Source: Candidatus Enterousia sp.
GTDB taxonomy: Bacteria > Pseudomonadota > Alphaproteobacteria > Rs-D84
Length of the DNA: 64,000 nt
Assembly: GCA_045645725.1 (NCBI GenBank)
Contig: JAZRJG010000021.1
Coordinates: forward strand, 965-64,964
Direction of reading: 5' to 3'
Shown: piece after piece, positions 17,859 to 60,568 of the stretch
Layout of the letters: each line of letters begins with the position of its first letter
Numbering within the stretch: the first letter of the stretch is position 1
Notes under the pieces: model-generated
The model's input: only the letters and a program-made list of their open reading frames with translations
The model's database searches: none
What the model was told of the DNA's origin: nothing
Position numbers and translations under genes: made by a program

Positions 17859-19157
17859 ATGTTCCGCAAATTTTTGATTGCTGCGATGTTCGCAACCGCT
17901 GCTGGGTACTGTTTTGCATCGGATGATGCACCTCAGGCCGTTACGTCACAGGTTTATTATGATCAAGAAAAATACATTGATGAAATCGTAGATGTTCAAA
18001 CGGAACCTATTAACCGTGCGTCGTTCAAAATGGCGCGTGATATACCGGCGTGGCCATTGGTTGGTTCGGATGCCGATGTAGAGGTTGGCTGTAAAGATGG
18101 TTTGTGTTCAAAAAAATCAATGGATGATTCTGTGCGTGTTGTGACAAAAGTTGGTCCGGATTTGGTCGTTGAAAATAATTTTAATTTGGGTACACGTGGT
18201 CAATTCTTGGGCTGGTCGGGTGGTGCAAATATGTTACACGGAAATCAGATTCCGGTTGGTTTTGATGATGAGTGTGCCAATAATTCTGAAATGCCATTGT
18301 TGCATCGTGAAGTTTTGGAAGACGATGGGGGCAGTGTTTTGGCCGTTTCGCGTGGTGGACGTAAAAACTGTGGTCGCTATGCCGATACGTACGAAGGTTT
18401 TGCCGCCAGAAATAATATGAAGGTTTCTGGTGTTACAGCCGATGGTAAAAATGTTACAACCGTTGCAAAAGTGTCGGTTGGTTCGTTGCAACAGGATATG
18501 GGTGGTAACAAGGTCGTTGCATTGGATGCGGGTATGGGTGATATGTTTGTTGTAGCCGAAAATGCTGGTCGTGTTGTCGAAGATGAAAATGGTAATCGTG
18601 CGGTTGCGGTGCGTGATCAAAACGGTGAAATGATGGTTGTGCCATCTGATGTTGGTCAGGTAATAGAAGACGCAATGGGTGAAACAATGGTGGCGATTTC
18701 GGACAAAAATGGTCAAACCGTCGTTGTGTCTGAAAAAAGCGGTATGATTGTAGAGGATATGGCCGGAAATCGTGCGGTTGCGTTCCGTGCAGATAATGGT
18801 GATGTTGTGGTTGTGACCGAAGAAACGGTTGTTACAACCGAAGAAACAATGGTTGCGGTTAATGAATCTGCAGATGCCGAAGCGCCGGTTAAGGCGGTTG
18901 ACCAAGTTCGTTCTTGGGTGGTTGCAAATGGTCAAACATTGCGTGAAGTATTGCAATCTTGGTGTGATAAAGAAGGTTGGGATTTGGTTTGGACAACTGC
19001 ACGTGAATATCCAATAGAAGCCAGTGCTGTTTTCAAAGGTCGTTTTGTTGATGTTGCGTCGGCTTTGGTTCGTAACTTTGGTCGTGCGACACCAATCCCA
19101 TATGCAAAATTCTATAAAGGTAATAGAGTATTGGTGATTTCAACCACAGAAGAATAA
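17859..19157 (+). CDS. secreted protein with a TcpQ-like C-terminal domain (PilL/TcpQ family, type IVb pilus secretin partner)
   Basis: A signal peptide is present. The central ~40-aa repeats read VVEDENGNRAVAVRDQNGEMMVV / VIEDAMGETMVAISDKNGQTVVV / IVEDMAGNRAVAFRADNGDVVVV. The C-terminal ...GQTLREVLQSWCDKEGWDLVW...YPIEASAVFKGRFVDVASALVRNF resembles the TcpQ C-terminal domain. Confidence 0.6.
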   Translation: MFRKFLIAAMFATAAGYCFASDDAPQAVTSQVYYDQEKYIDEIVDVQTEPINRASFKMARDIPAWPLVGSDADVEVGCKDGLCSKKSMDDSVRVVTKVGPDLVVENNFNLGTRGQFLGWSGGANMLHGNQIPVGFDDECANNSEMPLLHREVLEDDGGSVLAVSRGGRKNCGRYADTYEGFAARNNMKVSGVTADGKNVTTVAKVSVGSLQQDMGGNKVVALDAGMGDMFVVAENAGRVVEDENGNRAVAVRDQNGEMMVVPSDVGQVIEDAMGETMVAISDKNGQTVVVSEKSGMIVEDMAGNRAVAFRADNGDVVVVTEETVVTTEETMVAVNESADAEAPVKAVDQVRSWVVANGQTLREVLQSWCDKEGWDLVWTTAREYPIEASAVFKGRFVDVASALVRNFGRATPIPYAKFYKGNRVLVISTTEE

Positions 19158-19188
19158 TTCGTTGTTCAGATGCCGTAGGAGAAAATAG

Positions 19189-20817
19189 ATGAAAAAAATG
19201 TTGAAACGTGTTGTTATGGGTGCTTTGGTCGTGGCGTGCGTTGCAGGTTGTGCAAAGCGTGAATCGGCCCAAGTGGCGGCATCTGTTGACCAAGATTTTA
19301 TTAATGCATATGATGCATTTGAAATGGCGAAAAATCCGCGCGCCAAAGTGGCCAGTGGTGATACCGTTTCTATGTCCGAAGGTGTGTGGTTGGGAAATAA
19401 ATCTGTTGTTTTGGAACACAGAAATAATTTGCCGGCAAAATTTGAATCCGATACGGGTGTTACTATCTTGTTGAACGAACCGGTTTCTTTACAGGTTTTG
19501 GCAAATGATATTTATTCTATTACCGGTATCCCCGTTAAAATAGACAGTCAAGTTGCTGCAGATAAATTAAGAAAGTTGGTTAATGTTGCATATACGGGTA
19601 AGTTGTCCGGATTGTTATCTCAGGTTGCGACGGATTTAGATTTGTTGTGGTATTATGATAAAAATTCAATTGTATTCTATGAAACAGAGACGCGTACATT
19701 TACATTGTATGCATTGGGGACCGAAGTGGCATATCAGACGTCGGTTTCAACAGACGATGCAAATGAAGTATCGTTGGCGTCTACTTTGAAAGAATGGGAT
19801 GAAGTAGAAAGCGCAATTTCATCTATTATTGGTAACAGCAGTAATGCGGACTTTACCGTTTCGCGCAGTTTGGGGACGATTACTGTTACAGCATCGCCTT
19901 CGATTTTGTCGCGTGTTGGGGAATATATTGAACGTCAAAATAAACGTTTAAGTCAATTGATTACAATTGATGTAAAGGTTTTACAGGTAACTATTTCAAA
20001 TGATTCTGCGTTTGGTTTGAATTTGGCGGCGGCAATTAATTCAACGTCTGGTTTGAATATTGTTGCGAATCCAAAAAATAATTTGGCATCAACCGAAGCC
20101 AGTTCTATGAATATTGCGGTGTTGTCTAATACTGTTTCGGCATTGACGGGTGCAACACATATGGAAAATGGCAGTTTGGCCGAAGGCGCATATACAAACG
20201 ATCAGATTATGAACGGTTCCTTGGCGGGTGCCGCGGGCAGTAATGCTTTGATAGAAGCATTGGCAAAGCAGGGTAAAGTATCTTTGGTTACAAATGTTGG
20301 TGTAACAACGCGTTCAAATCGTGTTGCACCAGTTAGCAATACGCGTACAACGGGGTATATCAAACGCTTTGAATCACGTAACTTTACAACGGTTGAATCC
20401 AGTACGGTTGACCAAGATGATTTGGAAACGGGCTTTACAATGCAGTTGTTGCCAAATGTCTTGGACAACGGTAAGATTTTATTGTTGTTCCGTATGTCGG
20501 TGCGTGAATTGTTGCGTATGTCGACCCAGACAATTGGTGAAGTAACATTGCAATTGCCCGAAGTAGAAGAACGCAGTTTCATGCAAGAAGTTATTATGGA
20601 ATCGGGACAAATGTTGGTCGTTTCCGGCTTTGAAAAACAGACCAGTGAAGATACACGTTATGGTTTGGGTGATCCGGACTTTATGGCATTGTCTGGTTCA
20701 CGTGAAACATCGGCCACCCGTGAAGTATTGGTTGTTATTTTGACGCCACAGGTATTGGTAAGTCCGATGGATGTTGAACGTAGTATTCAGCAGCACTGGG
20801 GTGCACCACTAAATTAA
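19189..20817 (+). CDS. lipoprotein secretin of the BfpB/TcpC/PilN (type IVb pilus/T2SS-like) family
   Basis: The RBS is GTAGGAGAAAATAGATG. The lipobox is VAGC. A secretin-type block reads ...QLITIDVKVLQVTISNDSAFGLNL... The C-terminal ...TREVLVVILTPQVLVSP is present. The product is 542 aa. Confidence 0.65.
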   Translation: MKKMLKRVVMGALVVACVAGCAKRESAQVAASVDQDFINAYDAFEMAKNPRAKVASGDTVSMSEGVWLGNKSVVLEHRNNLPAKFESDTGVTILLNEPVSLQVLANDIYSITGIPVKIDSQVAADKLRKLVNVAYTGKLSGLLSQVATDLDLLWYYDKNSIVFYETETRTFTLYALGTEVAYQTSVSTDDANEVSLASTLKEWDEVESAISSIIGNSSNADFTVSRSLGTITVTASPSILSRVGEYIERQNKRLSQLITIDVKVLQVTISNDSAFGLNLAAAINSTSGLNIVANPKNNLASTEASSMNIAVLSNTVSALTGATHMENGSLAEGAYTNDQIMNGSLAGAAGSNALIEALAKQGKVSLVTNVGVTTRSNRVAPVSNTRTTGYIKRFESRNFTTVESSTVDQDDLETGFTMQLLPNVLDNGKILLLFRMSVRELLRMSTQTIGEVTLQLPEVEERSFMQEVIMESGQMLVVSGFEKQTSEDTRYGLGDPDFMALSGSRETSATREVLVVILTPQVLVSPMDVERSIQQHWGAPLN

Positions 20818-20845
20818 ATCTAATAATTTATCTAAAAGCGAAAAC

Positions 20846-20935
20846 ACCGGCTCATGTAACTTCTGTACACTACGCCGGTGTTTTCACTTTTATCTAAATC
20901 ATTATCTTTAATTTATTACCCCACTAGGGGGGCGT
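20846..20935. repeat. REP-like intergenic hairpin element (copy X) at the secretin 3' end
   Basis: An 11-bp stem (aaaacaccggc/gccggtgtttt) encloses the conserved core gtaacttctgtacactacg. About 25 nt downstream lies the conserved ccattatctttaatttatta plus ccccactagggggg. The same cores recur at 35921-36100. Confidence 0.7.
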
Positions 20936-21045
20936 ATGGCGGTGGCGCGGTTGCGACAGGTGGTTTGTTTGGTACGGGCAAAGGTACAAATGGTGGTGCC
21001 GTTAACAGCAGTAGTGTTAGTTATATAAAAATTTACAGATTTGAA

Positions 21046-21075
21046 TAAAAAAATCCCCGTTTTGGGGATTTTTTA
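21046..21075. terminator. rho-independent terminator for parE, bidirectional
   Basis: The stem is aaatcccc/ggggattt with loop gtttt and flanking A/T runs. Confidence 0.7.
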
Positions 21076-23052
21076 TACGAATAAATCTTTTACAAATTGG
21101 GCGTGTTCCGTTATAAATTTGAAACGGAATTCAGGTTTTTTACCCATTAATTCGGAAACGATTGTACGTGTTTTTTCTGTGTCTTCGGCACCTTCTTCGG
21201 TGCGTGGTGGCAGGTCAACGCGTATCAAGCGGCGTGTCTTTGGTGACATTGTTGTTTCTTTTAATTGGTTTGGCATCATTTCGCCCAAACCTTTGAATCG
21301 TGAGATTTCGACACGTTTGTTTTTATATTTTGTTGCTTTCAGATTTTCCAATTCTTCATCTGTATCAACATAAATTGATTCTGTGCCGCATGTCAATTTG
21401 TATAATGGGGGGCATGATAAATATAAATGACCGCCGTAAATTAATTGTGGCATATATTGGTAAAAGAACGCCATTAATAATGATGCGATGTGACTGCCGT
21501 CTACGTCGGCATCGGTCATGATAATGATTTTTTCATAGCGTAATTTATCTTCGTTCCAATCTTTTGCGGTACCTGCACCAATGATATCGATTAAGTCGTT
21601 TAATTCTTTATTTGCGCCAAAACGTTCGTCGGAATTTGATATAACATTCAAAACTTTACCGCGCAGGGGCATAATCGCTTGGGTTGCACGATCGCGCGCC
21701 TGTTTTGCGGTACCGCCCGCCGATTCACCTTCGACGATAAATAATTCTGTACCTGCAATGCCGTGTTTTGAACAGTCCGCCAATTTTGCCGGCATACGAA
21801 TGCGTTTGGTTGGGGTTTTACGTGCAACGTCTTTGACCGCTTTGGTTTTTATGCGTGCATTTGCCAAATTGATTACAAATTCCAATAACGCGTTTGCGGT
21901 TTTTGGGTCGGATGCCAAAAACATTTCCCATGGGTCACGTAATGCGTTTTCTGTGAAACGGGCAACTTCGGGGTTGGATAATTTTTCTTTGGTTTGTCCC
22001 AAGAATTGCGGAGTTTTATAAAAAACAGATACAATCGCAGCAACAGAATCAAAAACGTCTTCGCCGATAATTGTTGCGGCGGCTTTATTATTTACTTTTT
22101 CGCCATATGCTTTGATGCCTTTGGTAATTGCGGATTTGAATCCGGTTTCGTGTGTGCCACCGTCAATCGTTGCAATTGTATTACAATAAGATGAGAAGAA
22201 TCCGTCGTCCGATGCCGCGCCGTTTTCGTCGGTTAAAAATGTTAATGCCCATTCTATGCGACCACAATCGTCGGGAAAATCGACCGAGCCACTGAAAATA
22301 CGTGGCAAAATGCGCGGTTTGGTATCCGTTTTTTCGGCCAGAAAGTCCGCAACACCATTTGGATAAAAGAATGTTGTCGTGGCCGGTATATTCATATCTT
22401 CGGTTAATAAATCCGGATTGCAATGCCAATCAATTTTTACACCACGTGATAAAAATGCTTTGGCGCGTGCCATACGATAAATTTTTATTGGCTTAAATGT
22501 TGCGTTTGCACCAAAAATATTGTCGTCAATTGTAAAACGGATTTTTGTACCGTGGGCTTTGGTTGCGTCACCGCGTGTCATAGGTGATGTTGTTATCCCA
22601 CGTGAAAAGGTTTGATGCCAATTGTATCCGTCGCGTGCAATATCTACAATCATTTCCGATGATAATGCGTTTACAACCGCCGAGCCAACACCATGCAGAC
22701 CACCACTGGTTTTATAAACGTTATTGTTAAATTTACCGCCCGAATGCAGTGTTGTTAATATGACCTCTAATGCGGATTTGCCGGGGTACTTTGGGTGTTC
22801 GTCAACCGGAATTCCGCGGCCGTCGTCGGTAATTTCAATTGTTTTAGAATCAATTAAGCGAACCGTAATTTTTTTTGCAAAACCTGCAACCGCTTCGTCA
22901 ATTGAATTGTCCATAATTTCAATTGGCAAATGGTGCCATGCTTTTTCATCTGTGCCGCCAATGTACATGCCGGGGCGCAGGCGAACCGGTTCCAGACCTT
23001 CTAAGACCTGAATATCTGATGCGTCGTATGTTTGTGTCTTTTTCTCTGTCAT
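21073..23052 (-). CDS. parE: type IIA topoisomerase B subunit, most consistent with topoisomerase IV subunit B (ParE) by length
   Basis: The 659-aa product has the GHKL ATPase N-terminal (LEGLEPVRLRPGMYIGGT...HHLPIEIMDNSIDEA). The Toprim region reads ...ELFIVEGESAGG...IIMTDADVDGSHI. It lacks the ~170-aa GyrB insertion. Confidence 0.75.
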   Translation of the reverse strand: MTEKKTQTYDASDIQVLEGLEPVRLRPGMYIGGTDEKAWHHLPIEIMDNSIDEAVAGFAKKITVRLIDSKTIEITDDGRGIPVDEHPKYPGKSALEVILTTLHSGGKFNNNVYKTSGGLHGVGSAVVNALSSEMIVDIARDGYNWHQTFSRGITTSPMTRGDATKAHGTKIRFTIDDNIFGANATFKPIKIYRMARAKAFLSRGVKIDWHCNPDLLTEDMNIPATTTFFYPNGVADFLAEKTDTKPRILPRIFSGSVDFPDDCGRIEWALTFLTDENGAASDDGFFSSYCNTIATIDGGTHETGFKSAITKGIKAYGEKVNNKAAATIIGEDVFDSVAAIVSVFYKTPQFLGQTKEKLSNPEVARFTENALRDPWEMFLASDPKTANALLEFVINLANARIKTKAVKDVARKTPTKRIRMPAKLADCSKHGIAGTELFIVEGESAGGTAKQARDRATQAIMPLRGKVLNVISNSDERFGANKELNDLIDIIGAGTAKDWNEDKLRYEKIIIMTDADVDGSHIASLLMAFFYQYMPQLIYGGHLYLSCPPLYKLTCGTESIYVDTDEELENLKATKYKNKRVEISRFKGLGEMMPNQLKETTMSPKTRRLIRVDLPPRTEEGAEDTEKTRTIVSELMGKKPEFRFKFITEHAQFVKDLFV

Positions 23053-32265: not shown

Positions 32266-32332
32266 GTAAAAATTGTTTGAATGTACGTCTGTTCTGTGTT
32301 ATAATTTGCGTATGAAAGTAAGGAGTTTACAT

Positions 32333-32719
32333 ATGAAAAAGTTATTTGATAAAGTTCGTTTTTATTCAATGTTGGCTGTGATGGTGATGGCGTCGTCATT
32401 CGCGTTTGCGGCCGAAAGTGATGCGGAATCGGCAATTTGCAATTTGTTGACCAAATTGGCACCTTTGTTCAAAGTGTTAAGTATTCTGGCATTCGTTGGT
32501 GCGGGATTTATTATCGCAGGTTGGGCATGGGGCTTTATTTCGGCCGGTAAAGTAACGATTGATGATATTAAGGGTAAGGGAATTGGTATGTTGGTCGGCT
32601 TTGTGCTGTTGTTCGCGATTGGCGCGTTGTTGCAATTTTTGATGACTTCGACTGGTGGCAGTGGGTTTTTAAATTGTGAGAATTTGGGTGGTTTGTTCCC
32701 AGGGTTTGAGGCGAATTAA
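32333..32719 (+). CDS. VirB2/TrbC-like type IV secretion pilin (orphan)
   Basis: The RBS is AAGGAG. A signal peptide is present. Two hydrophobic helices are separated by a short loop. AICNLLTKLAPLFKVLSILAFVGAGFIIAGWAWG resembles VirB2 NICTFILGPFGQSLAVLGIVAIGISWMFG. The C-terminal TGG...G is present. The product is 128 aa. Confidence 0.5.
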   Translation: MKKLFDKVRFYSMLAVMVMASSFAFAAESDAESAICNLLTKLAPLFKVLSILAFVGAGFIIAGWAWGFISAGKVTIDDIKGKGIGMLVGFVLLFAIGALLQFLMTSTGGSGFLNCENLGGLFPGFEAN

Positions 32720-35490: not shown

Positions 35491-35904
35491 ATGAATAAAA
35501 TATTGGTTGCGATTTTTGGGGTATTGATGTCTGTGGCGGCGCATGCGGTGCCGGCGGTGGTTGACTATGTTTTGGATGGTGATACTTTTTCGGCGGCTGT
35601 AAATATTGCGCCGGATATCGCCATTACGGTTCGTGTCCGATTGATAAATGTAGATACGCCTGAAATGAATGGGGCATGTGACGATGAAATTCGTCGGGCG
35701 AATATTGCCAAAGATCGTCTTGCGGAATTGTTGCCCGTTGGCACAGTTGTTGATTTGCAAAATATCAAAGATGATAAATATCTGGGGCGGATTGATGCGA
35801 ACGTAATTATGGCAGATGGTCGTGACGTCGGCAAAGTTTTGGTTTCCGAAGGTTTGGCGCGGGTGTATAGTGGTGGCAAACGTATGTCTTGGTGTAAAAG
35901 TTAA
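35491..35904 (+). CDS. secreted thermonuclease (staphylococcal nuclease/SNase-like)
   Basis: A signal peptide is present. The SNase blocks are VDGDTF...VRLINVDTPEM...YLGRIDANV...DVGKVLVSEGLARVY. The product is 137 aa. Confidence 0.7.
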   Translation: MNKILVAIFGVLMSVAAHAVPAVVDYVLDGDTFSAAVNIAPDIAITVRVRLINVDTPEMNGACDDEIRRANIAKDRLAELLPVGTVVDLQNIKDDKYLGRIDANVIMADGRDVGKVLVSEGLARVYSGGKRMSWCKS

Positions 35905-35920
35905 ATCTAATGGCATATCT

Positions 35921-36100
35921 AAAGCGGATTGGGGGTGTCTTATGTAGCGTTATGTACACTACGACACCCAAATCCGTTTATCTATACCATTATCTTTAAT
36001 TTTTTCACCGCTAGGGGGTGAGGTGCTGGCTCAGTAACTTCTGTACACTACGACACCTCAATCATTTTATCAATACCATTATCTTTAATTTATTAATCGT
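35921..36100. repeat. two tandem copies (Y1, Y2) of the REP-like hairpin element family
   Basis: In Y1 the stem gggtgtc/gacaccc encloses ...tgtacactacg. In Y2 the stem gaggtg/cacctc encloses gtaacttctgtacactacg. Each is followed after ~24 nt by ccattatctttaatt(t/a)tt. A cacc gctagggggtg hairpin is also present. The pair sits between the convergent SNase and plsC genes. Confidence 0.7.
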
Positions 36101-36105
36101 TGTGT

Positions 36106-36813
36106 TTATGCGCTGTGGCGGTTGATGGCTTCGGATATTTCGTCCAATGATGCGTTGCATGGCAACAGTGGTTCAAACCATACATTTGCCGTGCCAGATT
36201 GCATGCGACCGCGCTTTGGCCAATATACGCCTGCATCTGTGCCGACCGGCAAAATCGGTAATTTTAATGTGTGGGCCAATAACAGCAGGCCGCGTTTTAA
36301 TGGTATGCGTTGGCCGGGTTTTACACGTGTGCCTTCGGGGAATATTACCAATGTATATCCGTCCAAGATACGTTTTTCTACTGCGTCTGCCAATTGTTTC
36401 AGGTTTGTTTTACCGCGTGCGCGATTTACCCCCAACATACCGCAACGCCAAAATGCCCATCCATAGATTGGTATCCACAGCAGTTCGCGCTTTAATATAA
36501 AAAATGATTTTGGAACAACGCGTGATATAATTGCGATTTCCAAAATAGACATGTGTTTGGCGGCGATTACGGCTTTGCCATCACTGCGTTTGTTTCCGTT
36601 TGGCATGGCGGGAATGCCGTTCTCTTCGTTTGTTGGATAATGTACGTCGTATTTTATGCCACAAATCCAACGCGCCAAGACCAATACGCCGGCCGCGTCT
36701 GTGAATACCAATTTTCGGCAAAGTTTTTTGGATATCATACCGACCAATAAAAATGGTGCCCATAATGTAAAATATATCGCCAGTGTTGTTTTGAATAATA
36801 TTGTTCTGAACAT
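36106..36813 (-). CDS. plsC: 1-acyl-sn-glycerol-3-phosphate acyltransferase (PlsC family)
   Basis: An N-terminal TM helix is present. The acyltransferase blocks are ...HMSILE... and ...LVIFPEGTRVKPGQ. The internal ATG at 36813 is chosen with RBS AAGGAAAACAT. Confidence 0.75.
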   Translation of the reverse strand: MFRTILFKTTLAIYFTLWAPFLLVGMISKKLCRKLVFTDAAGVLVLARWICGIKYDVHYPTNEENGIPAMPNGNKRSDGKAVIAAKHMSILEIAIISRVVPKSFFILKRELLWIPIYGWAFWRCGMLGVNRARGKTNLKQLADAVEKRILDGYTLVIFPEGTRVKPGQRIPLKRGLLLLAHTLKLPILPVGTDAGVYWPKRGRMQSGTANVWFEPLLPCNASLDEISEAINRHSA

Positions 36814-36827
36814 ATGTTTTCCTTTTT

Positions 36828-37343
36828 TTAACTTTCTTTTATTCCAATTAATGTGACGATGTATTTTATATATTCGGTCGTCCATCGTTCTAATCTTTTA
36901 CCGACCGGCATTCCCGCCAAGATTGCCGGACATGCGATTATGTTTACGTCGGGTAATTCGTGCTTTATCAAATACTTTGCGCGATTTATGTGGTCTTCGG
37001 TTGTGATTATTACCAAACGTTTCAATTTGTTTCGTGTGGCGATTTCTTTTATTGCCAATGCGTTTTGATATGTAGATTTTGATTTAGATTCAATTATTGC
37101 GGGGCGTGTATCAATCGTGTGACCCGAAAATCCGGCGCCAATTATATACAGGTTTGCGTTTGGGAATTCTTGGGTCTTTTTCATGGCGAACGGTATGCGA
37201 CGTTCGTCGCCGGTTAATACGAATATGTTGTCGTTTGGCGATATTTCGCCACATCGAATTGGGGCAGCGGCTTTGAATATCATGCCGCCCAAAATAAAGC
37301 AGCCAAGCAATAACAATGATGGTGTCAGTATTCGGGCCTGCAT
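36828..37343 (-). CDS. DUF218 (YdcF/ElyC/SanA-like) family protein
   Basis: A signal/TM N-terminus is present. The block ...IFVLTGDERRIPFAMKK...ANLYIIGAGFSGH...LVIITTEDHINRAKYL resembles the DUF218 Rossmann-like pattern. Confidence 0.55.
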   Translation of the reverse strand: MQARILTPSLLLLGCFILGGMIFKAAAPIRCGEISPNDNIFVLTGDERRIPFAMKKTQEFPNANLYIIGAGFSGHTIDTRPAIIESKSKSTYQNALAIKEIATRNKLKRLVIITTEDHINRAKYLIKHELPDVNIIACPAILAGMPVGKRLERWTTEYIKYIVTLIGIKES

Positions 37344-40407: not shown

Positions 40408-42609
40408 ATGAAATACGAATTTAAAATATCTACTTTATCGATTGTTTGCGTGTTGTGTGCGGCGATGTCTGCGCCTGCGTTTGGTGCGCCGGCGGTTCGT
40501 TCGTTGGGTGGTGCGGGTACGTACGTTGGTTCAACGGGTGCGACGGCGGCCAAAGCAACGGGTACGTCTAAACCGGCAACAGCAACGGTGAAATCGGTTC
40601 GTGGTGGATCGATGCGTGTGAATCCGGCGGCGACATCTGGCACCACGTCAACACGTGCGTCATCAACCCGTGCGTCGTCAACACCGCGTTTGTCAATTGG
40701 TAAATACCTGTCGGGCAGCAGCACCGCCGTCAGTGGTACTGTAAAACCGGTTGATCCGGAATTGTCTGCGGGTAATTTGCAAGATCGTATTGAAGTTTTG
40801 GAAGATTATTTGGGCTATACCGAAGGTGATGCGCCATTGAAGGCCGGTGTTGCCGCAATGGAATTGGATGTTCAGAAATTAAAGCAAGATTTGTCCGAAA
40901 TGCTGGGGACGCAAATTGACGTTGTTTATGGCACAGATGGGGTTTTGACGATTAAACGTGGTTCGGATACGATTGTTTCGGAAAAGTTTGTAACCGCGGC
41001 GGATTTGCAAAATGCGATTAATGATGCGGTTGATGGTGTTGTGACATCTGATATGTTGGATGTTGTTGAACAAGATATTGCAGGTATCAAATCCGAAGTT
41101 TCTACATTGACCGAAGCGGATAAAGCGTTACAAGATGCGATTGATGCGTTGGAATCGGCACAGGGTGGCACGGATTCAACAACAGCCGAATTGTCGAACC
41201 AGATTGAAGATTTGCAAGCCGCCCAAGAATCATTGCAGACCGTGGTTGATGGTTTGGCGTCCAAAAATTTCGTAGAAGACACGTATGTTGATTCTGCGGT
41301 TGCGGGCGCGGTTGAGAATTTGACGGCTGCGGACGATTTGATTAAACAAATGATTGCGGATTTACAGGGTGGAAACACAACGTCTTTGTCCGAATTGGCG
41401 ACGGCAATCGAAGCATTGAAATCGGCCGATACGGGTATTAATACCGCGGTTGAAGCGATTGTGGCGGATGTTGCGGCATTGGAAACAGCAATGGCGGATG
41501 TTGAAAAGGCATTGGAAACATTTACAACCACCGAAATCACAAACAATTTGACGCAACGTGTTGTTGAATTGGAAACAAAATTGGCGGGTGTTGATTTGTC
41601 TTCGTTCGCGACAATCGCTGATTTGAATTTGGCCAAGGATGAATTATCAGATGCGTTTTCAGAATTACTGACGACCGTTACCAACAAACATAACGCGGAT
41701 ATCGAATCATTACAGGGTGCATTGGAAGCACTGAAATCTGCCGGTATTGTGACGGATGCTACATTTGCGGAGTTACAGGATAAAGTTTCGGAAATCGCGG
41801 CGGACTATGCCACAGACGGTGAAGTGTCCGATGCGGTTGCGGCGGCGCGCAATGCATTACAAGATTTAATCGATGCAAATGCGATTGCGATTGCGGCAAA
41901 TACATCTGCGATTGCGAAAAATGCAGCGGATATTGCGACAAACACGTCTGCGATTGCGTCGGTACAAACAACGGCGGAATCGGCGTTGGATTTGGCGAAT
42001 TCAAATGCGGCCGAATTGGTTACGGTTAATGAAACGTTACCAACATTGGTGACCAAAGGTGAATTGGCCGAATTGCAGGATGATTTGAATGGTTTGATTG
42101 CCGAAGAAATTAAGAATGGTAATTTTGCGGCGGCGGCGGATTTGGCTGCGGCACAAAATGAAATTGGTAATTTGAAAACCGGTGCGATTAAAACAGCGGA
42201 ATCAATTGCTGAATTGCAGTCCAAGATGGAAGACATCTATAAAAAATATGCAACCAAGGAAGAATTATCGGCTGCGGAATTGCGTTTGACCACAACGATG
42301 GAAAGTTTGGGTAAACGTGTTTCGGTAAATGAAGCGGCAATTGAAGAATTGCGTACGGCCGTTGCCGGCAAAGTTGACAGTACGACATTGGCAACCACGG
42401 TTCAAGAATTGGTTGAACAAAACAAAATTACTATACCAATTGCCGACGGGTCGATTACAACCGCAAAGTTGGCAGATGGTGCGGTTACGTCGGGTAAAAT
42501 GAGCGTTAACGGTTTTGAACCGGGCCAAATGGCGATGTTCATGAACTATGGCGGTGTTGGTGAATGGGTATTGGTGAACGTTGCGACGGCCCAAAACGTT
42601 TCCGAATAA
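40408..42609 (+). CDS. secreted Ala/Thr-rich coiled-coil surface protein S1 (733 aa)
   Basis: The signal peptide is MKYEFKISTLSIVCVLCAAMSAPAFG. An N-terminal Ser/Thr/Arg-rich low-complexity region is present. A long heptad-like alpha-helical region follows. The C-terminal has ...[23 protein letters not shown]... decapeptide repeats. The terminal ...GEWVLVNVATAQNVSE ends in an aromatic motif. Confidence 0.6.
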   Translation: MKYEFKISTLSIVCVLCAAMSAPAFGAPAVRSLGGAGTYVGSTGATAAKATGTSKPATATVKSVRGGSMRVNPAATSGTTSTRASSTRASSTPRLSIGKYLSGSSTAVSGTVKPVDPELSAGNLQDRIEVLEDYLGYTEGDAPLKAGVAAMELDVQKLKQDLSEMLGTQIDVVYGTDGVLTIKRGSDTIVSEKFVTAADLQNAINDAVDGVVTSDMLDVVEQDIAGIKSEVSTLTEADKALQDAIDALESAQGGTDSTTAELSNQIEDLQAAQESLQTVVDGLASKNFVEDTYVDSAVAGAVENLTAADDLIKQMIADLQGGNTTSLSELATAIEALKSADTGINTAVEAIVADVAALETAMADVEKALETFTTTEITNNLTQRVVELETKLAGVDLSSFATIADLNLAKDELSDAFSELLTTVTNKHNADIESLQGALEALKSAGIVTDATFAELQDKVSEIAADYATDGEVSDAVAAARNALQDLIDANAIAIAANTSAIAKNAADIATNTSAIASVQTTAESALDLANSNAAELVTVNETLPTLVTKGELAELQDDLNGLIAEEIKNGNFAAAADLAAAQNEIGNLKTGAIKTAESIAELQSKMEDIYKKYATKEELSAAELRLTTTMESLGKRVSVNEAAIEELRTAVAGKVDSTTLATTVQELVEQNKITIPIADGSITTAKLADGAVTSGKMSVNGFEPGQMAMFMNYGGVGEWVLVNVATAQNVSE

Positions 42610-42699
42610 CACGTACACACAGGAATTGGAAAGTAAAAACGACCCGCATGGGTCACAACAAAAAAACAAAACAAAACAAAAAAAGAAAGGAAGGAAACC

Positions 42700-43869
42700 A
42701 TGAAAGTAAAAAACATTATGTTCTCAGGATTTGCAGCAGCAATCTTGATGGGCGTTGGCGCAGCAAACGCTGTCACCGGTCCTGTAACCTTGGCGGATAA
42801 GGGCTACGTTGATGAGAAAGTTAATTTGGTCGCTGGTCAAAAAGAAGCGGTTGCAAATAAAATGAATGCAACAACAGCGAAAGCGGCGAATTTGGATACT
42901 TTGGCGGCTGATGAAGCGAATTATCCATCTGTTGCAGCGGCTGTTGAAATTGCTGATAAAAAAGCATCATCTGTTTTGGAAAAAGTAAATGCCAATGCGG
43001 GTAATTTGAATACTTTGATTTCTGATGTTGCTACTTTAAAGGGGGATGCTGAAGAAGAGGGGTCTGTTGCTCATTCTATCGCAGCAGCTTTGAAAACTGC
43101 AGAAGATGATGCGACAACAAAAGCTGATAAGGCATTGGCGGATGCAAAAGATTATACGAATACAAAAGTTGGCGAATTGGGCACAGCTGAAAGCGTAGTA
43201 GCGTATGTTGATGCGAAAGCGGCTGAAGCACAGCAGGCAGCGGTTGATGCGGCGGATGCTGCGGCAGCACTTGCTATTGAAAATTCTGGTCACGCAAAGG
43301 CGACAGAAGTTGCAGCAACATATGAAACAAAAGACGATGCATCATCTAAATTGGCTGAAGCAAAGAAATATACTGATGATGAAATTGCAGAGTTAAATGT
43401 TTCTCAGTATGCAACAAAAGCTGAAATAACCCAGGCTGACTATGCATCTAAAACAGAAGCAGAGGGTTATGCAACGGCAGCTGTAAATGCATTGAATATC
43501 GGTGATTATGCAAAAACAGCAGATGTTCAAGCGACATATGCAACAAAAACTGAAATAAGCAATGCTAACTATGCATCTAAAACAGAAGCAGAAGGTTATG
43601 CAACGGCAGCTGTAAATGCATTGAATATCGGTGATTATGCAAAAACAGCAGATGTTGCAGCGACATATGAAACAAAAGAAAGTGCAGCAGCATATGCAAA
43701 AACAGCAGATGTTAATGCAGAATTGGCCAAGAAATTGAACAAAACTGCAATTGACAATGCGGCTGGTACATACATGGTAACAAGCGACGGTGCAGGTAAC
43801 TTTACTTATACCAAAGTATTGGTTGCAACTGGTGTTGATGGCGAAGGTAACGCAGAGATTACTGAATAA
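42700..43869 (+). CDS. secreted Ala-rich coiled-coil surface protein S2 (389 aa), paralog of S3
   Basis: The RBS is AGGAAGGAAACC. The signal peptide is MKVKNIMFSGFAAAILMGVGAANA. The mature N-terminus has ADKGYVDEKV. Repeats of K.YTD/YA.K are present. An internal 43-aa near-perfect tandem duplication is present. The C-terminal is ...GNFTYTKVLVATGVDGEGNAEITE. Confidence 0.6.
   Translation: MKVKNIMFSGFAAAILMGVGAANAVTGPVTLADKGYVDEKVNLVAGQKEAVANKMNATTAKAANLDTLAADEANYPSVAAAVEIADKKASSVLEKVNANAGNLNTLISDVATLKGDAEEEGSVAHSIAAALKTAEDDATTKADKALADAKDYTNTKVGELGTAESVVAYVDAKAAEAQQAAVDAADAAAALAIENSGHAKATEVAATYETKDDASSKLAEAKKYTDDEIAELNVSQYATKAEITQADYASKTEAEGYATAAVNALNIGDYAKTADVQATYATKTEISNANYASKTEAEGYATAAVNALNIGDYAKTADVAATYETKESAAAYAKTADVNAELAKKLNKTAIDNAAGTYMVTSDGAGNFTYTKVLVATGVDGEGNAEITE
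43439..43656 (+). repeat. intragenic tandem repeat (2 x ~129 bp) inside S2
   Basis: The unit ctatgcatctaaaacagaagcaga(g/a)ggttatgcaacggcagctgtaaatgcattgaatatcggtgattatgcaaaaacagcagatgtt occurs at about 43439-43527 and 43568-43656. Both copies encode DYASKTEAEGYATAAVNALNIGDYAKTADV. Confidence 0.8.
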
Positions 43870-43931
43870 TAAAAATAACGGACAAGACCCCGTCGTAATG
43901 GCGGGGCATGATGGAAAGAAAGGATATTAAC

Positions 43932-45398
43932 ATGAAAGTTAAAAATATTATGTTCTCGGGCTTTATGGCGATGGTCTTGGCCGGTGCGTGTGGTGCGGCA
44001 AATGCACAAATTGTTGTTGCGTCACAAAAATATGTTGACGATAAGGTCACAACTTTGAATTCCAAAGATACCGAATTGTCTGTAAAAATTACGGCTTTGG
44101 AAGATGCAAATAAAACAGGTGGTGCGGTTGCAGACGCAATTGCCGCCGCCCAAGGTGCCGCAGATGCCGCCCAATCAGATGTTGATACTTTGGCCGGTAA
44201 AATGAATTTGGACAGCGCGGACAGCGATTTGTCACAGGCGTTGGCACTAAAAGAAGATGCAGCAAATAAATTAGATTCTAGCCAAATCGATTTGTTAAAC
44301 ACAGATGGTACGGTTAATAAAGATGCAGTGAATACTTTGGTTGGTAATGATACAAAATTCCCAACGGTTGGTGCGGCGGTTGAAATCGCAAATGCAAAAG
44401 CACAACAGGTTTTGGAAAATGTTAATTCTGTTTCCGCTAATTTGGGTACATTGACATCAAAGGTTGATGAACATACAGCTTCTATTGAAATATTAGAAGG
44501 CGGTGAAGGTGTAACTGGTTCGGTTGCAAATCAAGTAAAAGCCGAAGCAGACCGCGCAACACAAGCAGAAGCGGGTTTAGCCCAAGCAATTGCAGATGAA
44601 AAATCCCGCGCAGAAGCAGCAGAACAAGGTCTGCAAACTGCAATTAATGCGATTAATAACGGTGAAACGGGTGCTTTGGCGACGGCAAAAGGTTATGCAG
44701 ATGAAAAAGTTGCGGCAGAAAAAGAACGTGCCGAAGCAGCAGAACAAGCAAATGCACAGGCGATTTTAGATGCAAAAACAGAATTGAAAGGTTATGCGGA
44801 TGCCGCAGAATCAGATGCAGTGACCACTGCAAACGCTTATACAGATTCTCAGGTTTCGACCTTGACGAGCCAGACAGCCAATAATACGGGTGCGATTGCT
44901 CAATTGCGTACAGATGTAAATGCTGCTGGGGTGGCAATTGATGATATTGCAAAAGAAGGTGGTACGATTGATCAGAAAGTTTCTGCTTTGGAAACAAAAT
45001 TAATGGATGATACAAATGGTACGGTTACTGCGGCAGTGGCGGCGGAAAAAACACGTGCCGAAGGTAAAGAAGCCGAATTGGCGACTGCGATTTCAAATGA
45101 AAAAACACGTGCCGAAGGTGAAGAAACCAGAATTGAGGGTTTGGTAACTGCGGAGAAAGAACGTGCAATGGGTGTAGAAGAAGGTCTGCAAAATTCAATT
45201 AATGCGATTAATAACGACACCAATGGTATTTATGCTAAGGCAAAACAATATACAGATGCAGGGTTGAATACAATTTATAGCAATGCAAGTGAATGTATTG
45301 CGGATTCTGACTCAAATAATTGTATTTTGTCGGCACGTACCGGAACAGACGGAAACCCAATGTATGTCTGGATTTCTTTGACTGCACCGGCAGAATAA
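43932..45398 (+). CDS. secreted Ala-rich coiled-coil surface protein S3 (488 aa)
   Basis: The RBS is AAAGGA. The signal peptide is MKVKNIMFSGFMAMVLAGACGAANA, nearly identical to S2. The mature N-terminus has ASQKYVDDKV. The repeats read ...KGYADEKVAAEKERAEAAEQ... and ...EKTRAEGKEAEL.../...EKTRAEGEETRI... The C-terminal is ...NPMYVWISLTAPAE. Confidence 0.6.
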   Translation: MKVKNIMFSGFMAMVLAGACGAANAQIVVASQKYVDDKVTTLNSKDTELSVKITALEDANKTGGAVADAIAAAQGAADAAQSDVDTLAGKMNLDSADSDLSQALALKEDAANKLDSSQIDLLNTDGTVNKDAVNTLVGNDTKFPTVGAAVEIANAKAQQVLENVNSVSANLGTLTSKVDEHTASIEILEGGEGVTGSVANQVKAEADRATQAEAGLAQAIADEKSRAEAAEQGLQTAINAINNGETGALATAKGYADEKVAAEKERAEAAEQANAQAILDAKTELKGYADAAESDAVTTANAYTDSQVSTLTSQTANNTGAIAQLRTDVNAAGVAIDDIAKEGGTIDQKVSALETKLMDDTNGTVTAAVAAEKTRAEGKEAELATAISNEKTRAEGEETRIEGLVTAEKERAMGVEEGLQNSINAINNDTNGIYAKAKQYTDAGLNTIYSNASECIADSDSNNCILSARTGTDGNPMYVWISLTAPAE

Positions 45399-45511
45399 TT
45401 ATTTCCTAAAAAATATTTTTAAAAAAAAAGTGTGTAAAGTGTAATTTTGCACTTTACACACTTGGTCAAAAAATGATATTATAGAATCATCGAAAGGAAG
45501 GATGGGATTTT

Positions 45512-46711
45512 ATGAAACGTTTAACAGCAGGTATCTTTGCGGTTTTAATGGGTTTGGTATCCGTTAATGGTGCAGATGCTGCCGTTACGTCCGAAGCATG
45601 GGTTAGACAAGAATTGGCTAAAAAACAAGATTTGTTGGACAATGATAATGCCGGAACAAACGTAACTATTTCATCAGATCATAAAATTAATGTTCAAACA
45701 ACCGATACTGCGGCCGCGAACAGTGTTGTGCCTGCGTCGGCGGGTTTGGTGCATACGGTTATGACCGATGCTGCGACGGCGCGTTCGGGTTTGGATACGC
45801 GTATCACCGCAAATGAAACAGCAGTTTCGAATTTGCAATCGGGTAAAGCGGATAAAGGTACAAAATTATCCGATTATGGTATTACAGATGCGTATACCAA
45901 AGGCGAAACCGATACGAAAATTGCCGATGCTGTGAAAGATACAATGGAAGGTGATGTTTCTGCGGCATTGGGTGATTATTTGTTGAAAACAGAAGCAGAA
46001 GCACTGTATGAAACAATTGCTGCGGCCCAGGCGACAAATAGTGCCCAGACAACAAAAATTGATGCGAATACTGCGGCGGTTGCCACGTTAAATGGTAATG
46101 AATCTGTTGAGGGTTCGGTCGCGAAAAAGATTGCTGATTCTATTCAGGCAATGTCTTTGGTCGATGTTGCCAAGGATCGTGAATTTGTGACATTGGTTTC
46201 ACAAACAAATGGTAAGATTTCGGTTGAACGTCGTGCATTGAAACAGTCCGATATCCCAACAATTACACTTAGTCAGGTTGGTATCGATAATGGTACAGAT
46301 TGGCGCACGTTGATGCAGATGTTGGCGGATACCGAAGGTTCGATTCAATTGGTTGCAACAAAAAGTGGTTTGCAAAATTTGGTAATCCGTAATGGTGCAA
46401 TCACATCCAGTATGATTGCCAATGGTGCGGTTACGACAGATAAATTGGCCGACGGTGCGGTTACGGGCAATAAATTGAGTGATGGTGCGGTTACCGGAAA
46501 AAAATTGGGTGACGGTTCGGTAACAAAAGATAAGATTGGTGCGGGTGCCGTTGATGCCACCAAGTTGGCCGAGGCGGTTCAGAATCAATTAAATGGTGCT
46601 TTACAGGCGCCGGAATCATATGCGGCGACATCGACGGGTACTTTGGTATTGACGGCGACGCCACAGGGTGATGGATCATATGCTTATTCGTGGGAAGATA
46701 TTTCACGTTAA
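45512..46711 (+). CDS. secreted surface protein S4 (399 aa) with tail-fibre-like decapeptide repeats
   Basis: The RBS is GAAAGGAAGGA. The signal peptide is ...[12 protein letters not shown]. The N-terminus is [13 protein letters not shown]. The block [25 protein letters not shown] is present. Six consecutive decapeptides AVTxxKLxDG are present ([54 protein letters not shown]). The C-terminal is ...[12 protein letters not shown]. Confidence 0.6.
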
Positions 46712-46828
46712 GTATGTCAGTTTGAAAACAGTCATAATCGATTTGGATTCGGTTTTGGCGAAACAAAATGTCACGGTGCGGTTTTCCAATCTGTGGCGAA
46801 ATAAAACCAAGAAAGAAAGGAAAGAAAA

Positions 46829-47932
46829 ATGAAAAAATTATTAACAGTATCGTTGGTTGCGGTTATGGCTGTATCCGCTGCTCACGCGGAAATCGCATCT
46901 ACAAATTATGTAGGAAAACAAATTGCAGCTTTTAATACTGAAACAATAGTCCCATTGGATGCCAAAGTTGGTAATGCTCAATTTGCAAATGGTGTAGCTG
47001 CCTCTCATAAAGGTAATGTGACTGATGCTATCGATGCAGTTGCAGGTGTTGTTGCGGGATTGAGTGGTGATGGTGACGGTTCTGTTGCAAAGCAGATTGC
47101 AGCTGCCAAGGAGGAATTGGAAGGATATGCAGATGAAGCTGCTGGTAAAGCATTGGATGATGCAAAAGCAGATGCGGCAAAATATATTGATGAAGATGAA
47201 TTGACAGCATCTCAAGAAGCGCAAGACGCAGTTTTGAAAGCTTATACTGATACTGCTGCAAAGGCGGATGCTGAAGGTGCATTGGCTAGCGGTTTTGTAA
47301 AAACTTACGTTGATAAATCTGTTGCCACAATCCAAGGAAATTTAGGTGATCAATCTACAACTATTTCTCAAATCGCCACTTTTGATAAAGATGGCAATTT
47401 GACTGGTGGTGCTTTGGGAGCAGTTGCTACTACTTTAGATACAGCGGTTGAGTTGGATGATGCAGGCAATTTGACTGGTGGTGCAACAAAAGCGTATACA
47501 GATGATGAAATTCAGAAATTGGATGGTAAAACAGTTGCTGGTACTGCAGATGGAAGCTATGTCGTTCAAACAACAGAAGAAAGTGGTATCGTAACTGTAT
47601 CCCGTGTGGCATTTGATAAATCGGTTACATCAGCGGGCACAGACAATACTGCACCAACAACCAAAGCGGTATATGCTGCTATTGAAGGCGCAAAATCGGC
47701 GAATACTGATGCTATTAATGATTTGGATGCAAACAAAGCAGTTACTGGTAATAACTTTGTAACTGGCGTGACCCAGGTAGATGGTGTTATAACTGCAATT
47801 TCTGAAAAATCTATCAATGATGCTGTAGTTGCCTTGGCAACTGTTCCAGAAAAATGCGGTGCTAATGGAACTAACAAATGTTCTTTGTCTGTTTCAAAAG
47901 GCACATTTACATGGGAAATTATCGAAGAATAA
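46829..47932 (+). CDS. secreted Ala/Asp-rich surface protein S5 (367 aa)
   Basis: The RBS is GAAAGGAAAGAAAAATG. The signal peptide is MKKLLTVSLVAVMAVSAAHA. The N-terminus is EIASTNYVGKQI. The motif TAPTTKAVYAAIEGAKS is tail-fibre-like. The C-terminal is ...KCSLSVSKGTFTWEIIEE. Confidence 0.6.
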   Translation: MKKLLTVSLVAVMAVSAAHAEIASTNYVGKQIAAFNTETIVPLDAKVGNAQFANGVAASHKGNVTDAIDAVAGVVAGLSGDGDGSVAKQIAAAKEELEGYADEAAGKALDDAKADAAKYIDEDELTASQEAQDAVLKAYTDTAAKADAEGALASGFVKTYVDKSVATIQGNLGDQSTTISQIATFDKDGNLTGGALGAVATTLDTAVELDDAGNLTGGATKAYTDDEIQKLDGKTVAGTADGSYVVQTTEESGIVTVSRVAFDKSVTSAGTDNTAPTTKAVYAAIEGAKSANTDAINDLDANKAVTGNNFVTGVTQVDGVITAISEKSINDAVVALATVPEKCGANGTNKCSLSVSKGTFTWEIIEE

Positions 47933-47987: not shown

Positions 47988-48084
47988 TTGTTTTTGTGGG
48001 GGCAACAGTTCCCCGCCGTTGGAGTGCTGCCCGCAGGGCGGGGTGGTTAGAGTGTCCGAGAAATCGCCGTAAACCCCACATACT

Positions 48085-52679: not shown

Positions 52680-52681
52680 TA

Positions 52682-52708
52682 AAAAAGTCCCCGAACGGGG
52701 ACTTTTTT
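52682..52708 (+). terminator. rho-independent terminator
   Basis: The stem is aaaagtcccc/ggggactttt with loop gaac, followed by a T6 run. Confidence 0.75.
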
Positions 52709-52792
52709 AATAGACATAATTTTTTGTTTTTGTTATCTTTGGCACAAGGAAAGAGGGCAAATTACAGATTTGTAACGGAGATTTCGCGCATT

Positions 52793-60065: not shown

Positions 60066-60173
60066 ATTGTTTCCTTTTTTTTGTCGTAGTATTTTTTTTG
60101 TATTGGGGCACAGGCTATCACAAAAAAAACATGGGTCAAGTTTTTTCGTTTTGGGTGGTTTGTAAAATAGAAA

Positions 60174-60568
60174 AACCGGCACAAGGCCGATTTTAATTTT
60201 ATGCTCTTCGTCTTGGGGATCCCTCAGCATCGGGGTGATGCCTGCGGGGCATTCGTGACGATTTGACTGTGTGTTGCGTGTCAAATCTACTCATTGTCGA
60301 ACCGACATTGTTTCACAATGTGGGGTATTGCCCCCATACCCCCATACATAAAATAAAAACCGGCACAAGGCCGATTTTAATTTTATGGTCTTCGTCTTGG
60401 GGGTCCCTCGGCATCAGGGTGATGCCTGCGGGGCATTCGTGACGATTTGACTGTGCGTTGCGTGTCAAATCTACTCATTGTCGAACCGACATTGTTTCAC
60501 AATGTGGGGTATCGCCCCCGTACCCCATACATAAAACAAAAACCGGCACAAGGCCGATTTTAATTTTA
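60174..60568. repeat. tandem repeat of ~184 bp (2 full copies and a 28-bp partial) abutting the 3' end of tRNA-Pro
   Basis: The copies start at 60174, 60358 and 60541, and are about 93% identical. Each unit begins with the hairpin cggc-acaag-gccg plus a T-run, which acts as the tRNA terminator on the minus strand. Each unit also contains the internal hairpins tgtcg-aac-cgaca, cattg-tttca-caatg and tggggta-N9-tacccca. Confidence 0.85.

Follow-up and report, generated by a model that had tools for sequence, protein, structure and literature searches.

A family of gene-end hairpin repeats with a conserved tip and a covarying stem in 'Candidatus Enterousia' and related Rs-D84 bacteria

Repetitive extragenic palindromes (REP), enterobacterial repetitive intergenic consensus sequences or intergenic repeat units (ERIC/IRU), and Correia elements are intergenic hairpin repeats that have been known for decades and whose origin and function are still debated. 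ERIC/IRU of enterobacteria and Yersinia and the Correia elements of Neisseria are imperfect palindromes of about 100–150 nt that are co-transcribed with neighboring genes, form long hairpins, and affect the upstream mRNA in a manner that depends on their orientation. Here we describe a hairpin repeat found in 64,000 nucleotides of DNA from Candidatus Enterousia sp. (assembly GCA_045645725.1, contig JAZRJG010000021.1, positions 965–64,964), a stretch that is referred to as the window throughout. Three copies in it, X, Y1, and Y2, had been pointed out from the letters of the window in an original prediction, which regarded them as REP-like. We hold it to be almost certain that this repeat family is real and that its hairpin is selected. 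The best explanation for X, Y1, and Y2, to which we give an even chance, is that they belong to a lineage-wide family of gene-end hairpins in Enterousia and related Rs-D84 bacteria, similar to REPs and to bacterial interspersed mosaic elements (BIME), with a selected structure and a putative function at the gene end.

By kind the element is a palindromic extragenic repeat; what is new in it is the fixed tip on a free stem, the abutment to stop codons, the restriction to a single strand, and the presence of the tip in more than one bacterial class. Like REPs, BIMEs, and REP doublets forming hairpins (REPIN), it is extragenic, palindromic, and multi-copy, lies at gene ends in tandem arrays of variable copy number, and shows several subfamilies per genome, polymorphic sites, and a conserved stem mismatch. 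The antisense strand of the tip has a GTAG beside a palindrome, which recalls the REP signature, and the orientation by replichore has a counterpart in Pseudomonas (PMC3333891; PMC3116915). In REPs, however, the stem sequence of 30–40 nt is conserved and the linker or loop varies, whereas in the element the tip is conserved and the stem varies, which is the usual pattern reversed and, moreover, tied to stop codons and to one replication strand. The palindrome behind the GTAG has only 4–5 bp, the copy number per genome is in the tens, not the hundreds, one and the same tip is present in different proteobacterial classes, and stop-codon abutment and co-orientation with the gene are much stricter; a REP-associated tyrosine transposase (RAYT), whose gene is usually flanked by REPs (a REPtron), was not found with approximate queries in about 1.5 Mb around the elements. 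The term REP-like thus suits the behavior of the element (extragenic, palindromic, arrayed, polymorphic) but not its anatomy. ERIC/IRU and Correia elements have conserved terminal inverted repeats and a conserved body and insert in either orientation; unlike the element they exhibit no pattern of conserved tip and variable stem and no known restriction to a replication strand.

The core of the element, TGTACACTACG, has three exact matches in the window (20864, 35953, and 36042, all on the plus strand) as compared with 0.43 expected from shuffles, and a second box, located 25–26 nt 3′ of each core, has three matches with at most 2 mismatches as compared with 0.04 expected, which bears out the three copies originally described. 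The proposed search for further copies was made with the core plus the second box in one genome per species and yielded 102 stretches, nearly all from 'Candidatus Enterousia' or uncultured Alphaproteobacteria bins of ruminant and other guts; two of them (one Bacilli bin and one Gammaproteobacteria bin) are chance matches. The family comprises more than 170 copies in at least 37 genome bins, with covariance-model E-values of 1e-20 or lower. The genome size of Enterousia, a member of the order Rs-D84, is about 0.75–1.0 Mb (PMC12306168). The family persists in genomes of less than 1 Mb that have shed most dispensable DNA.

The layout of the element was drawn from an alignment of about 140 copies. 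The left half of a full copy reads AAATTAAA-TC-TAATGG-C-ATA-TC-T, followed by a variable arm of 17–20 nt and the tip TCATGTARCNNYTGTACACTAC; the right half consists of the complementary arm and of A-TC-TAT-A-CCATTA-TC-TTTAATTT, and a small G+C hairpin often comes next. The outer boxes have a second subtype, AAATAAATTATAATAAT ... ATCATTCTAATTTATTT, in which both sides have changed together. The fixed mismatches of the outer stem comprise a C·A and two of the 2x2 kind, with TC facing TC. The arms fall into about 35 sequence types, and when these were taken as guides or targets no convincing match outside the elements was found in about 790 kb. The covariation analysis covered 72 full copies, all distinct, which come from at least 37 'Candidatus Enterousia'/Rs-D84 genome bins. 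Standard pairs make up 95.7% of the cells, as compared with 75.6% when partners are shuffled and 34–42% when they are slid by 1–3 columns; double-sided changes, 552 cells in all, affect 24 of the 36 stem pairs, and three or four pair types are seen at many positions. Because of this covariation and of the excess of pairing over shuffled and slid partners, the stem is considered to be held as a structure. It should be noted that ten core bases are invariant in this alignment by construction, being demanded by the search; in copies found by looser criteria the tip differs by only 1–2 bases. The original proposal of a conserved tip on genuinely covarying stems, and its insistence that this is not merely a duplicated terminator, are therefore supported for a family of many copies.

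When a covariance model trained on related copies was run over the 64 kb of the window, X scored 112 bits (E = 3e-24) and Y1 104 bits (E = 4e-22), and no other full copies were found. Both are near-perfect palindromes of about 105 nt, and their long hairpin folds have shuffle-based energy z-scores of −8.1 (X) and −4.0 (Y1). The parts of the copies are as follows.

20811–20833, plus strand: left outer box of X, AAATTAAA TC TAATAATTTA TCT
20815–20817, plus strand: stop codon TAA inside the left box of X (AAATTAAA), belonging to the secretin-family gene 19189–20817
20834–20851, plus strand: variable left arm of X, AAAAGCGAAAACACCGGC, complementary to 20874–20891
20852–20873, plus strand: conserved 22-nt tip of X, TCATGTAACTTCTGTACACTAC
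20874–20891, plus strand: variable right arm of X, GCCGGTGTTTTCACTTTT
20892–20914, plus strand: right outer box of X, ATCT AAATCATTA TC TTTAATTT
20915–20932, plus strand: small G+C hairpin trailing X ('C' region), ATTACCCCACTAGGGGGG
35897–36002, plus strand: full copy Y1, with the left box at 35897–35920 and the stop codon of the SNase-family gene at 35902–35904
Inner parts of Y1, plus strand: left arm 35921–35939, tip 35940–35962, right arm 35963–35979, right box 35980–36002
36003–36030, plus strand: linker from Y1 to Y2, made up of the small 'C' hairpin CACCGCTAGGGGGTG and a tract rich in G and T
36031–36091, plus strand: partial unit Y2 without left arm, with the tip at 36031–36051, a right-arm-type segment at 36052–36068, and the right box at 36069–36091

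The right box of X pairs with the left box save for the conserved TC·TC and C·A-type mismatches, and a small G+C 'C' hairpin trails many copies of the family. The flanking arms of X and Y1 are complementary as had been claimed, but the interval originally assigned to X is too small: its palindrome spans 20811–20914 and starts within the stop codon region of the upstream gene. Y2 has one base of the tip deleted (TCA-GTAAC), and its 3′ end lies 14 nt from the stop of a convergent acyltransferase gene (36106–36885, minus strand). A G/T-rich stretch at 20919–21048, between X and a canonical terminator, holds a 56-codon glycine-rich open reading frame (ORF) and a 30-codon ATG ORF behind AGGGGGG. 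A small ORF after X (20878–21048, or from 20936 onward) was rejected as a candidate gene: it has no Pfam match, and the orthologous locus in the closest genome (L042) differs there.

Y2 represents a common kind of unit. Of 116 arrays, 71 consist of a single unit and 45 are multi-unit (29 with two, 13 with three, and 3 with four units), and the extra units are mostly partial, consisting of tip, right-arm-type segment, right box, and small hairpin at a spacing of 88–95 nt. In 34 partial units the left flank pairs with the unit's own arm at a mean of 6.06 of 12 positions as compared with 6.17 of 12 with the arms of other units (permutation p = 0.69). Since the own arm pairs no better than others, the third stem that had been proposed, gaggtg/cacctc of Y2, is at chance level, and Y2 is a partial unit rather than a hairpin copy. 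There is a second kind of array, in which full hairpins stand in tandem at a spacing of 103 nt (loci L029 and L069).

All copies had been thought to sit at the 3′ ends of convergent genes. The gene-end part of this holds: among the arrays with enough flank (n = 99) a co-oriented ORF of at least 80 codons ends 49–62 nt before the core, at or inside the left box, in 95. The convergent part does not, the downstream gene being convergent in 51 and co-oriented in 37 of the 88 scorable cases. The upstream genes belong to 23 families. As read from C-terminal sequences, they are presumably thioredoxin-reductase-like (13 species) and acyl-CoA-synthetase-like (10 species) genes and, by the same reading, those for FtsK, an SNase-family nuclease, a YebC-like protein, a secretin, EF-P, and others; in the window they are the secretin (X) and SNase-family nuclease (Y) genes. 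The original prediction did not include the conserved outer boxes, the way the element abuts the stop codon, its confinement to the G-rich strand, or the occurrence of the tip beyond this lineage (see below).

At orthologous gene ends (n = 147) the element is present in 120 cases and missing in 27, and the empty ends mostly carry a canonical terminator 5–8 nt past the stop; the element thus occupies sites that hold a canonical terminator in related species. For example, when filled and empty sites are compared at the acyl-CoA-synthetase-like gene, the element is seen to lie between the stop codon and that terminator's A-tract. Only 29 of 113 arrays are followed by a simple hairpin plus T-run within 170 nt, and the Y array is the sole structured feature between its two convergent genes. 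With Rho-independent (bidirectional) terminators the element shares the position right after the stop codon, the A-rich 5′ flank, and the T-rich 3′ flank; it differs from them in its stem of about 45 bp with internal loops, its 22-nt tip, and a G+C helix about 25 nt away from the T-rich tail, and some sites have a canonical terminator in addition to it. The window gene ends 3083, 21048, 35458, and 52681 have ordinary bidirectional terminators that share one design (A-run, CCCC/GGGG-type stem, T-run), and this recurrence implies that canonical terminators are in use next to the hairpin repeats in this genome.

The two strands of the element do not fold equally well. The antisense-strand hairpin is the more stable one in 71 of the 72 Enterousia copies, where the mean difference is 11.4 kcal/mol with RNA and 4.1 kcal/mol with DNA parameters, and in 53 of 76 hairpins of other families (among the matches listed). 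Mismatches on the sense strand are pyrimidine-pyrimidine in 330 and purine-purine in 70 cases. The commonest 2x2 loop, 5′-TC/5′-TC (41 cases), is a tandem 5′-GA/5′-GA on the antisense strand, and its mirror form is absent from the 15 commonest types listed; A·C mismatches on the sense strand, which are G·U on the antisense strand, number 112 versus 89 for G·U. Folded RNA usually has tandem sheared G·A and G·U as its non-canonical pairs, and these are stable in DNA, too. Read on the antisense strand, the tip is C-GTAG-TGTAC..GTACA-TGA-G, in which GTAG precedes only the mini-palindrome of 4–5 bp and not the main stem (in REPs a conserved GTAG stands 5′ of the foot of the palindrome); as RNA, GUA opposite GA would resemble the core of a bulged-G loop. 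That the antisense strand is the functional fold is, in our opinion, as likely as not, and the asymmetry gives a directly testable prediction of the acting strand.

The element is also polar with respect to replication. Scored on 91 loci of at least 4 kb, it is on the G-rich strand in all 91, the GC skew in element orientation having a minimum of 0.07, a median of 0.19, and a maximum of 0.29. The G-rich strand is normally the leading strand. Because the element is always on the G-rich strand, it follows only leading-strand genes; 35% of the long complete ORFs in these loci are on the opposite strand, and in the window about half of the genes are minus-strand, ten of them with solid Pfam matches. 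An explanation of the tip via TGTACA as an avoided restriction site was considered, but no bias was seen (14 observed versus 17.5 expected).

A tip-only scan of metagenomes with CTCATGTA-N4-7-TGTACACTACG gave at least 120 stretches, and among the matches listed only about a third are of the Enterousia type; in the remaining ones the tip is the same but sits on long imperfect hairpins that are unrelated, in contigs of 35–66% G+C. Outside Enterousia the tip is CTCA-TGTAC-loop-GTACA-CTACG, i.e., a 5-bp mini-helix with a variable loop, and in one Enterousia copy (L031) the compensated form TGTAT..ATACA was found. Across genera, a hairpin bearing the tip is retained at the 3′ end of the secretin gene (X of the window, L042, L067, and L120); in L120, from a relative within Rs-D84, the secretin ortholog (the same gene as at X) has the tip on a wholly different stem. 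One tip family (L176) has at least 11 members in several gene contexts, and the nearest named relatives of a flanking oligopeptidase A are Burkholderiales. Also among the matches listed, the base of the hairpin lies −14 to +20 nt from the stop of a co-oriented ORF in 36 of 57 cases and at a convergent stop in 8. The sharing of the tip by unrelated hairpins in distant bacteria suggests an unrecognized gene-end signal.

We favor a function of the element in gene-end transcription or at the RNA level and consider the arguments for and against it to be in balance. The element would be a gene-end hairpin with a stem of about 45 bp, transcribed with or against the adjacent gene, that ends or blocks transcription and shields the 3′ end; we infer this role because the element replaces terminators and lies in a 3′ flank that is transcribed or approached by polymerases. 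Because the better-folding strand is antisense to the adjacent gene, halting of RNA polymerases arriving from downstream may matter no less than termination of the gene's own mRNA. The conserved tip would be a putative recognition site for a conserved protein or nucleic-acid partner. Homogenization and spread of the copies may take place at the level of DNA, through gene conversion between the conserved boxes or through the action of a single-strand-DNA enzyme on the hairpin, and this would account for the polarity with respect to the replication strand.

Several findings weigh against such a function. An ordinary terminator is found at 21050–21078, 130 nt after X, and several other copies directly precede one, so that the element is not always the terminator. 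A terminator scan of X and Y called nothing: an intrinsic terminator has a short G+C stem, a loop of 3–8 nt, and a T-run within 0–2 nt, whereas the element has a tip of 22 nt and about 25 nt of A+T-rich stem between its G+C-rich helix and the T-rich tail, and G+C-rich tip families elsewhere are without a T-run. If the antisense strand is functional, its promoter is not evident in the 37 tandem-gene contexts. A promoter scan inside the X and Y elements gave none, and the antisense promoter candidate CTTGCG-N16-GATAAT, found by hand, was rejected since it is lost in other subtypes of the trailing region. The strand asymmetry in folding rests on the conserved mismatches, because G·T (34) and A·C (38) are about equally frequent among the mismatches of the variable helix in Enterousia copies. 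An RNA role alone leaves the absence from lagging-strand genes unexplained. And since gene order is shared between species, the effective sample for polarity is about 23 gene positions rather than 91 loci; the probability of finding all 23 on the G-rich strand, at a chance of 35% each of being on the other strand, is about 5e-5. A peptide encoded in the tip (ATG-TAA or ATG-TAG) had also been considered and was rejected because it is not retained in the GTAC variant of the tip.

The element behaves as repetitive DNA, its copies being gained, lost, swapped among loci, and multiplied into arrays. At orthologous ends remnants are found, such as a lone right box or an internally deleted mini-hairpin. 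Arm types differ between species at one and the same gene, and one arm type is found after different genes; in one genome (JAFXGD01) identical elements follow three different genes. Locus L002 equals locus L030 minus exactly one unit, a chimera that corresponds to a precise deletion. In only 2–3 of about 120 copies does the tip stand inverted with respect to both the outer boxes and the upstream gene (L006, 5151–5260; L077, 6019–6128, the same site as L089, 173–281), as expected from recombination between the two arms. Because such flips between 45-bp inverted arms should be easy and yet are rare, their rarity suggests selection on the orientation of the tip. In one Enterousia-type genome (L075, 4370–4485; the same element in L182) a hairpin with the tip is without the usual outer boxes and has the stem GTTGCGATTTGAACAACC / GGTTGTTCAAATCGCAAC, and near position 1875 of L094 a normal left half is joined to a right half of this type. 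Exchange or mobility at the DNA level is therefore quite probable.

It is thus possible, although in our view it is the minority case, that the element is purely selfish DNA: a non-autonomous mobile element, comparable to miniature inverted-repeat transposable elements (MITE) or REPINs, that moves as a single-stranded hairpin by means of an enzyme encoded elsewhere (a RAYT or a Y1 HUH enzyme of the IS200/IS605 kind). The tip would be the recognition or cleavage site presented by the stem, and the stop codon would be the sole harmless slot in a compact genome. Polymorphic presence, remnants, arrays, shuffled stem types, and identical copies at different loci are what such an element should show. 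The strict polarity would be that of IS200/IS605 elements, which act on the lagging-strand template (PMC6006769); but the GTAG-bearing strand is the leading-strand template, whereas IS608-type elements use the lagging-strand template. Read on the antisense strand, GTAG plus a small palindrome would correspond to the head of a REP; TnpA-REP, for its part, requires a mismatch in the stem, and the C|T sites that it cuts include one within CTAC (PMC3333891). In Pseudomonas, the orientation of REP arrays likewise follows the replichore (PMC3116915). REP palindromes vary, however, between RAYT families, whereas the tip here is identical in Alpha- and Betaproteobacteria, the same genes retain the element across genera with entirely different stems (X versus L120), the rare inversions of the tip argue for selection on its orientation, and the genomes are smaller than 1 Mb (PMC12306168).

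The enzyme that the selfish element would need was not found around the elements or in the window. No Y1 transposase or RAYT-like ORF was seen in about 1.5 Mb around the elements, tblastn with approximate RAYT and IS608 TnpA queries giving only chance matches (one inside aconitase), which is weak evidence since these queries were approximations. There is no transposase in the window, whose sole trace of a mobile element is a partial phage-type integrase, and no insertion sequence with the outer boxes of the element as its ends was found in the loci or the window. The outer boxes are inverted repeats, but filled versus empty sites show no duplication beyond A-runs, which is not what a MITE would leave behind. 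BLAST of three element types against 72,556 plasmids gave no match, and a scan of viral contigs gave one with atypically short spacing, taken as probable chance. If the element is nevertheless selfish, it is a hairpin element that thrives in a reduced genome without a visible transposase. Purely selfish DNA is the main rival of the gene-end function, yet the two do not exclude each other, as with REP elements in E. coli.

A more far-reaching proposal, which we consider to be unlikely, takes the 24-nt tip as an ancient recognition module common to proteobacterial classes and the antisense hairpins as devices that stop polymerases entering genes from the 3′ side. The module would read C-GUAG-UGUAC-loop-GUACA-UGA-G, with a loop of the bulged-G (GUA/GA) type on a long stem with tandem sheared G·A pairs, and would constitute a new class of structured RNA or single-stranded DNA signal at stop codons that is read by a conserved host factor. 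In Enterousia it would be restricted to leading-strand genes, where antisense transcription is head-on to replication. If it is true that a conserved factor reads the tip, then the hairpins mark a gene-end signal that is missing from annotation and from Rfam. At gathering threshold Rfam 15 found only tRNAs in the window and 15 related loci, and at a permissive E-value only weak matches of the microRNA-precursor type, which are common for long hairpins. A literature search for the core as a string returned only unrelated primers and oligonucleotides, and the papers mentioning Enterousia contain no description of repeats.

It is quite unlikely that the element acts in cis as a hairpin within the sense mRNA's 3′ untranslated region, where the tip would bind an RNA-binding protein or another RNA and control stability, processing, or localization; kissing via the self-complementary UGUACA would be possible, and the pyrimidine-pyrimidine loops would be required flexible sites. 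Co-orientation with and abutment to the upstream stop (95 of 99 arrays in Enterousia; 36 versus 8 in other families among the matches listed), a tip that is conserved while the stem covaries, conserved internal loops, and a position kept at orthologous genes all agree with this. But the sense fold is systematically weaker, and it is the antisense reading that gives G·A and G·U, C·U, U·C, and C·A mismatches being uncommon in structured RNA. The absence from lagging-strand genes would remain unexplained, and the partial array units show the tip without a stem.

Very improbable is a replication-linked signal in single-stranded DNA (a hairpin for priming or of the single-strand-origin kind) or a recombination site of the attC kind. 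The absolute strand polarity relative to GC skew and a hairpin with conserved unpaired positions and a variable stem speak for it, since such positions and stems are also features of attC sites and rolling-circle origins. In attC sites, too, structure is kept rather than sequence, conserved unpaired positions make one strand active, and the sites follow directly on the stop codon of a co-oriented ORF and form arrays. However, the attC tip is variable and that of the element conserved, and array units of the element are 89–104 nt apart with no cassette between them. The R″ (RYYYAAC) and R′ (GTTRRRY) cores of integron attC sites are absent, the boxes being AAATTAAATCTAATGG / CCATTATCTTTAATTT, no integrase lies beside the arrays, and the flanking genes are core housekeeping genes (trxB, ftsK, efp, yebC-like, secretin, and similar), which led us to reject attC. 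The origin or nick hairpins of HUH enzymes in rolling-circle plasmids and CRESS-DNA viruses resemble the element in their conserved hairpin-top sequence, lineage-varying stem, and strand specificity, and ACTACG|A of the tip resembles the nick sequence of pMV158, TACTACG|A. Yet HUH origins are single replicon sites beside a Rep gene, whereas the element is found on chromosomes, tens of times and after housekeeping genes, and has neither a Rep gene beside it nor a match in plasmids. A common tip variant contains TAGCGT, the CS-6 hexamer of ssoA origins. An ssoA-type origin, which has CS-6 in its terminal loop and an RS-B site and is located on a rolling-circle plasmid, was rejected because this hexamer is missing from the equally common tip variant GTAACTTC, because of the lack of a match in the 72,556 plasmids (with one probable chance match in viral contigs), and because of the chromosomal context; and priming would not need abutment to a stop codon.

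That the copies are ordinary duplicated terminators, for which their location at gene ends and their T-rich tails might speak, or a chance similarity without a family, is already refuted by more than 170 copies in at least 37 bins with a fixed tip, covarying stems, and E-values of at most 1e-20.

Some further features of the window may be mentioned. The secretin gene upstream of X and a TcpQ-like gene lie at 17859–20817, and a TrbC/VirB2-type pilin gene lies at 32273–32719; these genes point to a pilus or secretion apparatus in a reduced genome. At 48080–48752, a small minus-strand ORF (about 48661–48350) just 3′ of a PLD-family gene is bracketed by another hairpin repeat, GTCACCCCGATGGCGATCGGGGCCCATTGTGTAAT, of which four copies point one way and a fifth is inverted. 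This ORF appears GIY-YIG-like by reading of the translation, not by Pfam, and the arrangement is reminiscent of a nuclease gene that has REP-like hairpins of its own on either side. A minus-strand tRNA gene (60572–60645) is adjoined by three tandem units of about 184 nt (60156–60588; 82–95% identical), and the partial phage-type integrase (56995–58002; arm-binding and central domains only) lies 2.5 kb away; together they are possibly the scar of an integrated element. Finally, large ORFs without Pfam match at 40408–47932 and 50577–53509 contain periodic coding repeats of 30 nt and 129 nt (GGTGCGGTTAC...) and probably encode repetitive surface or fiber proteins.

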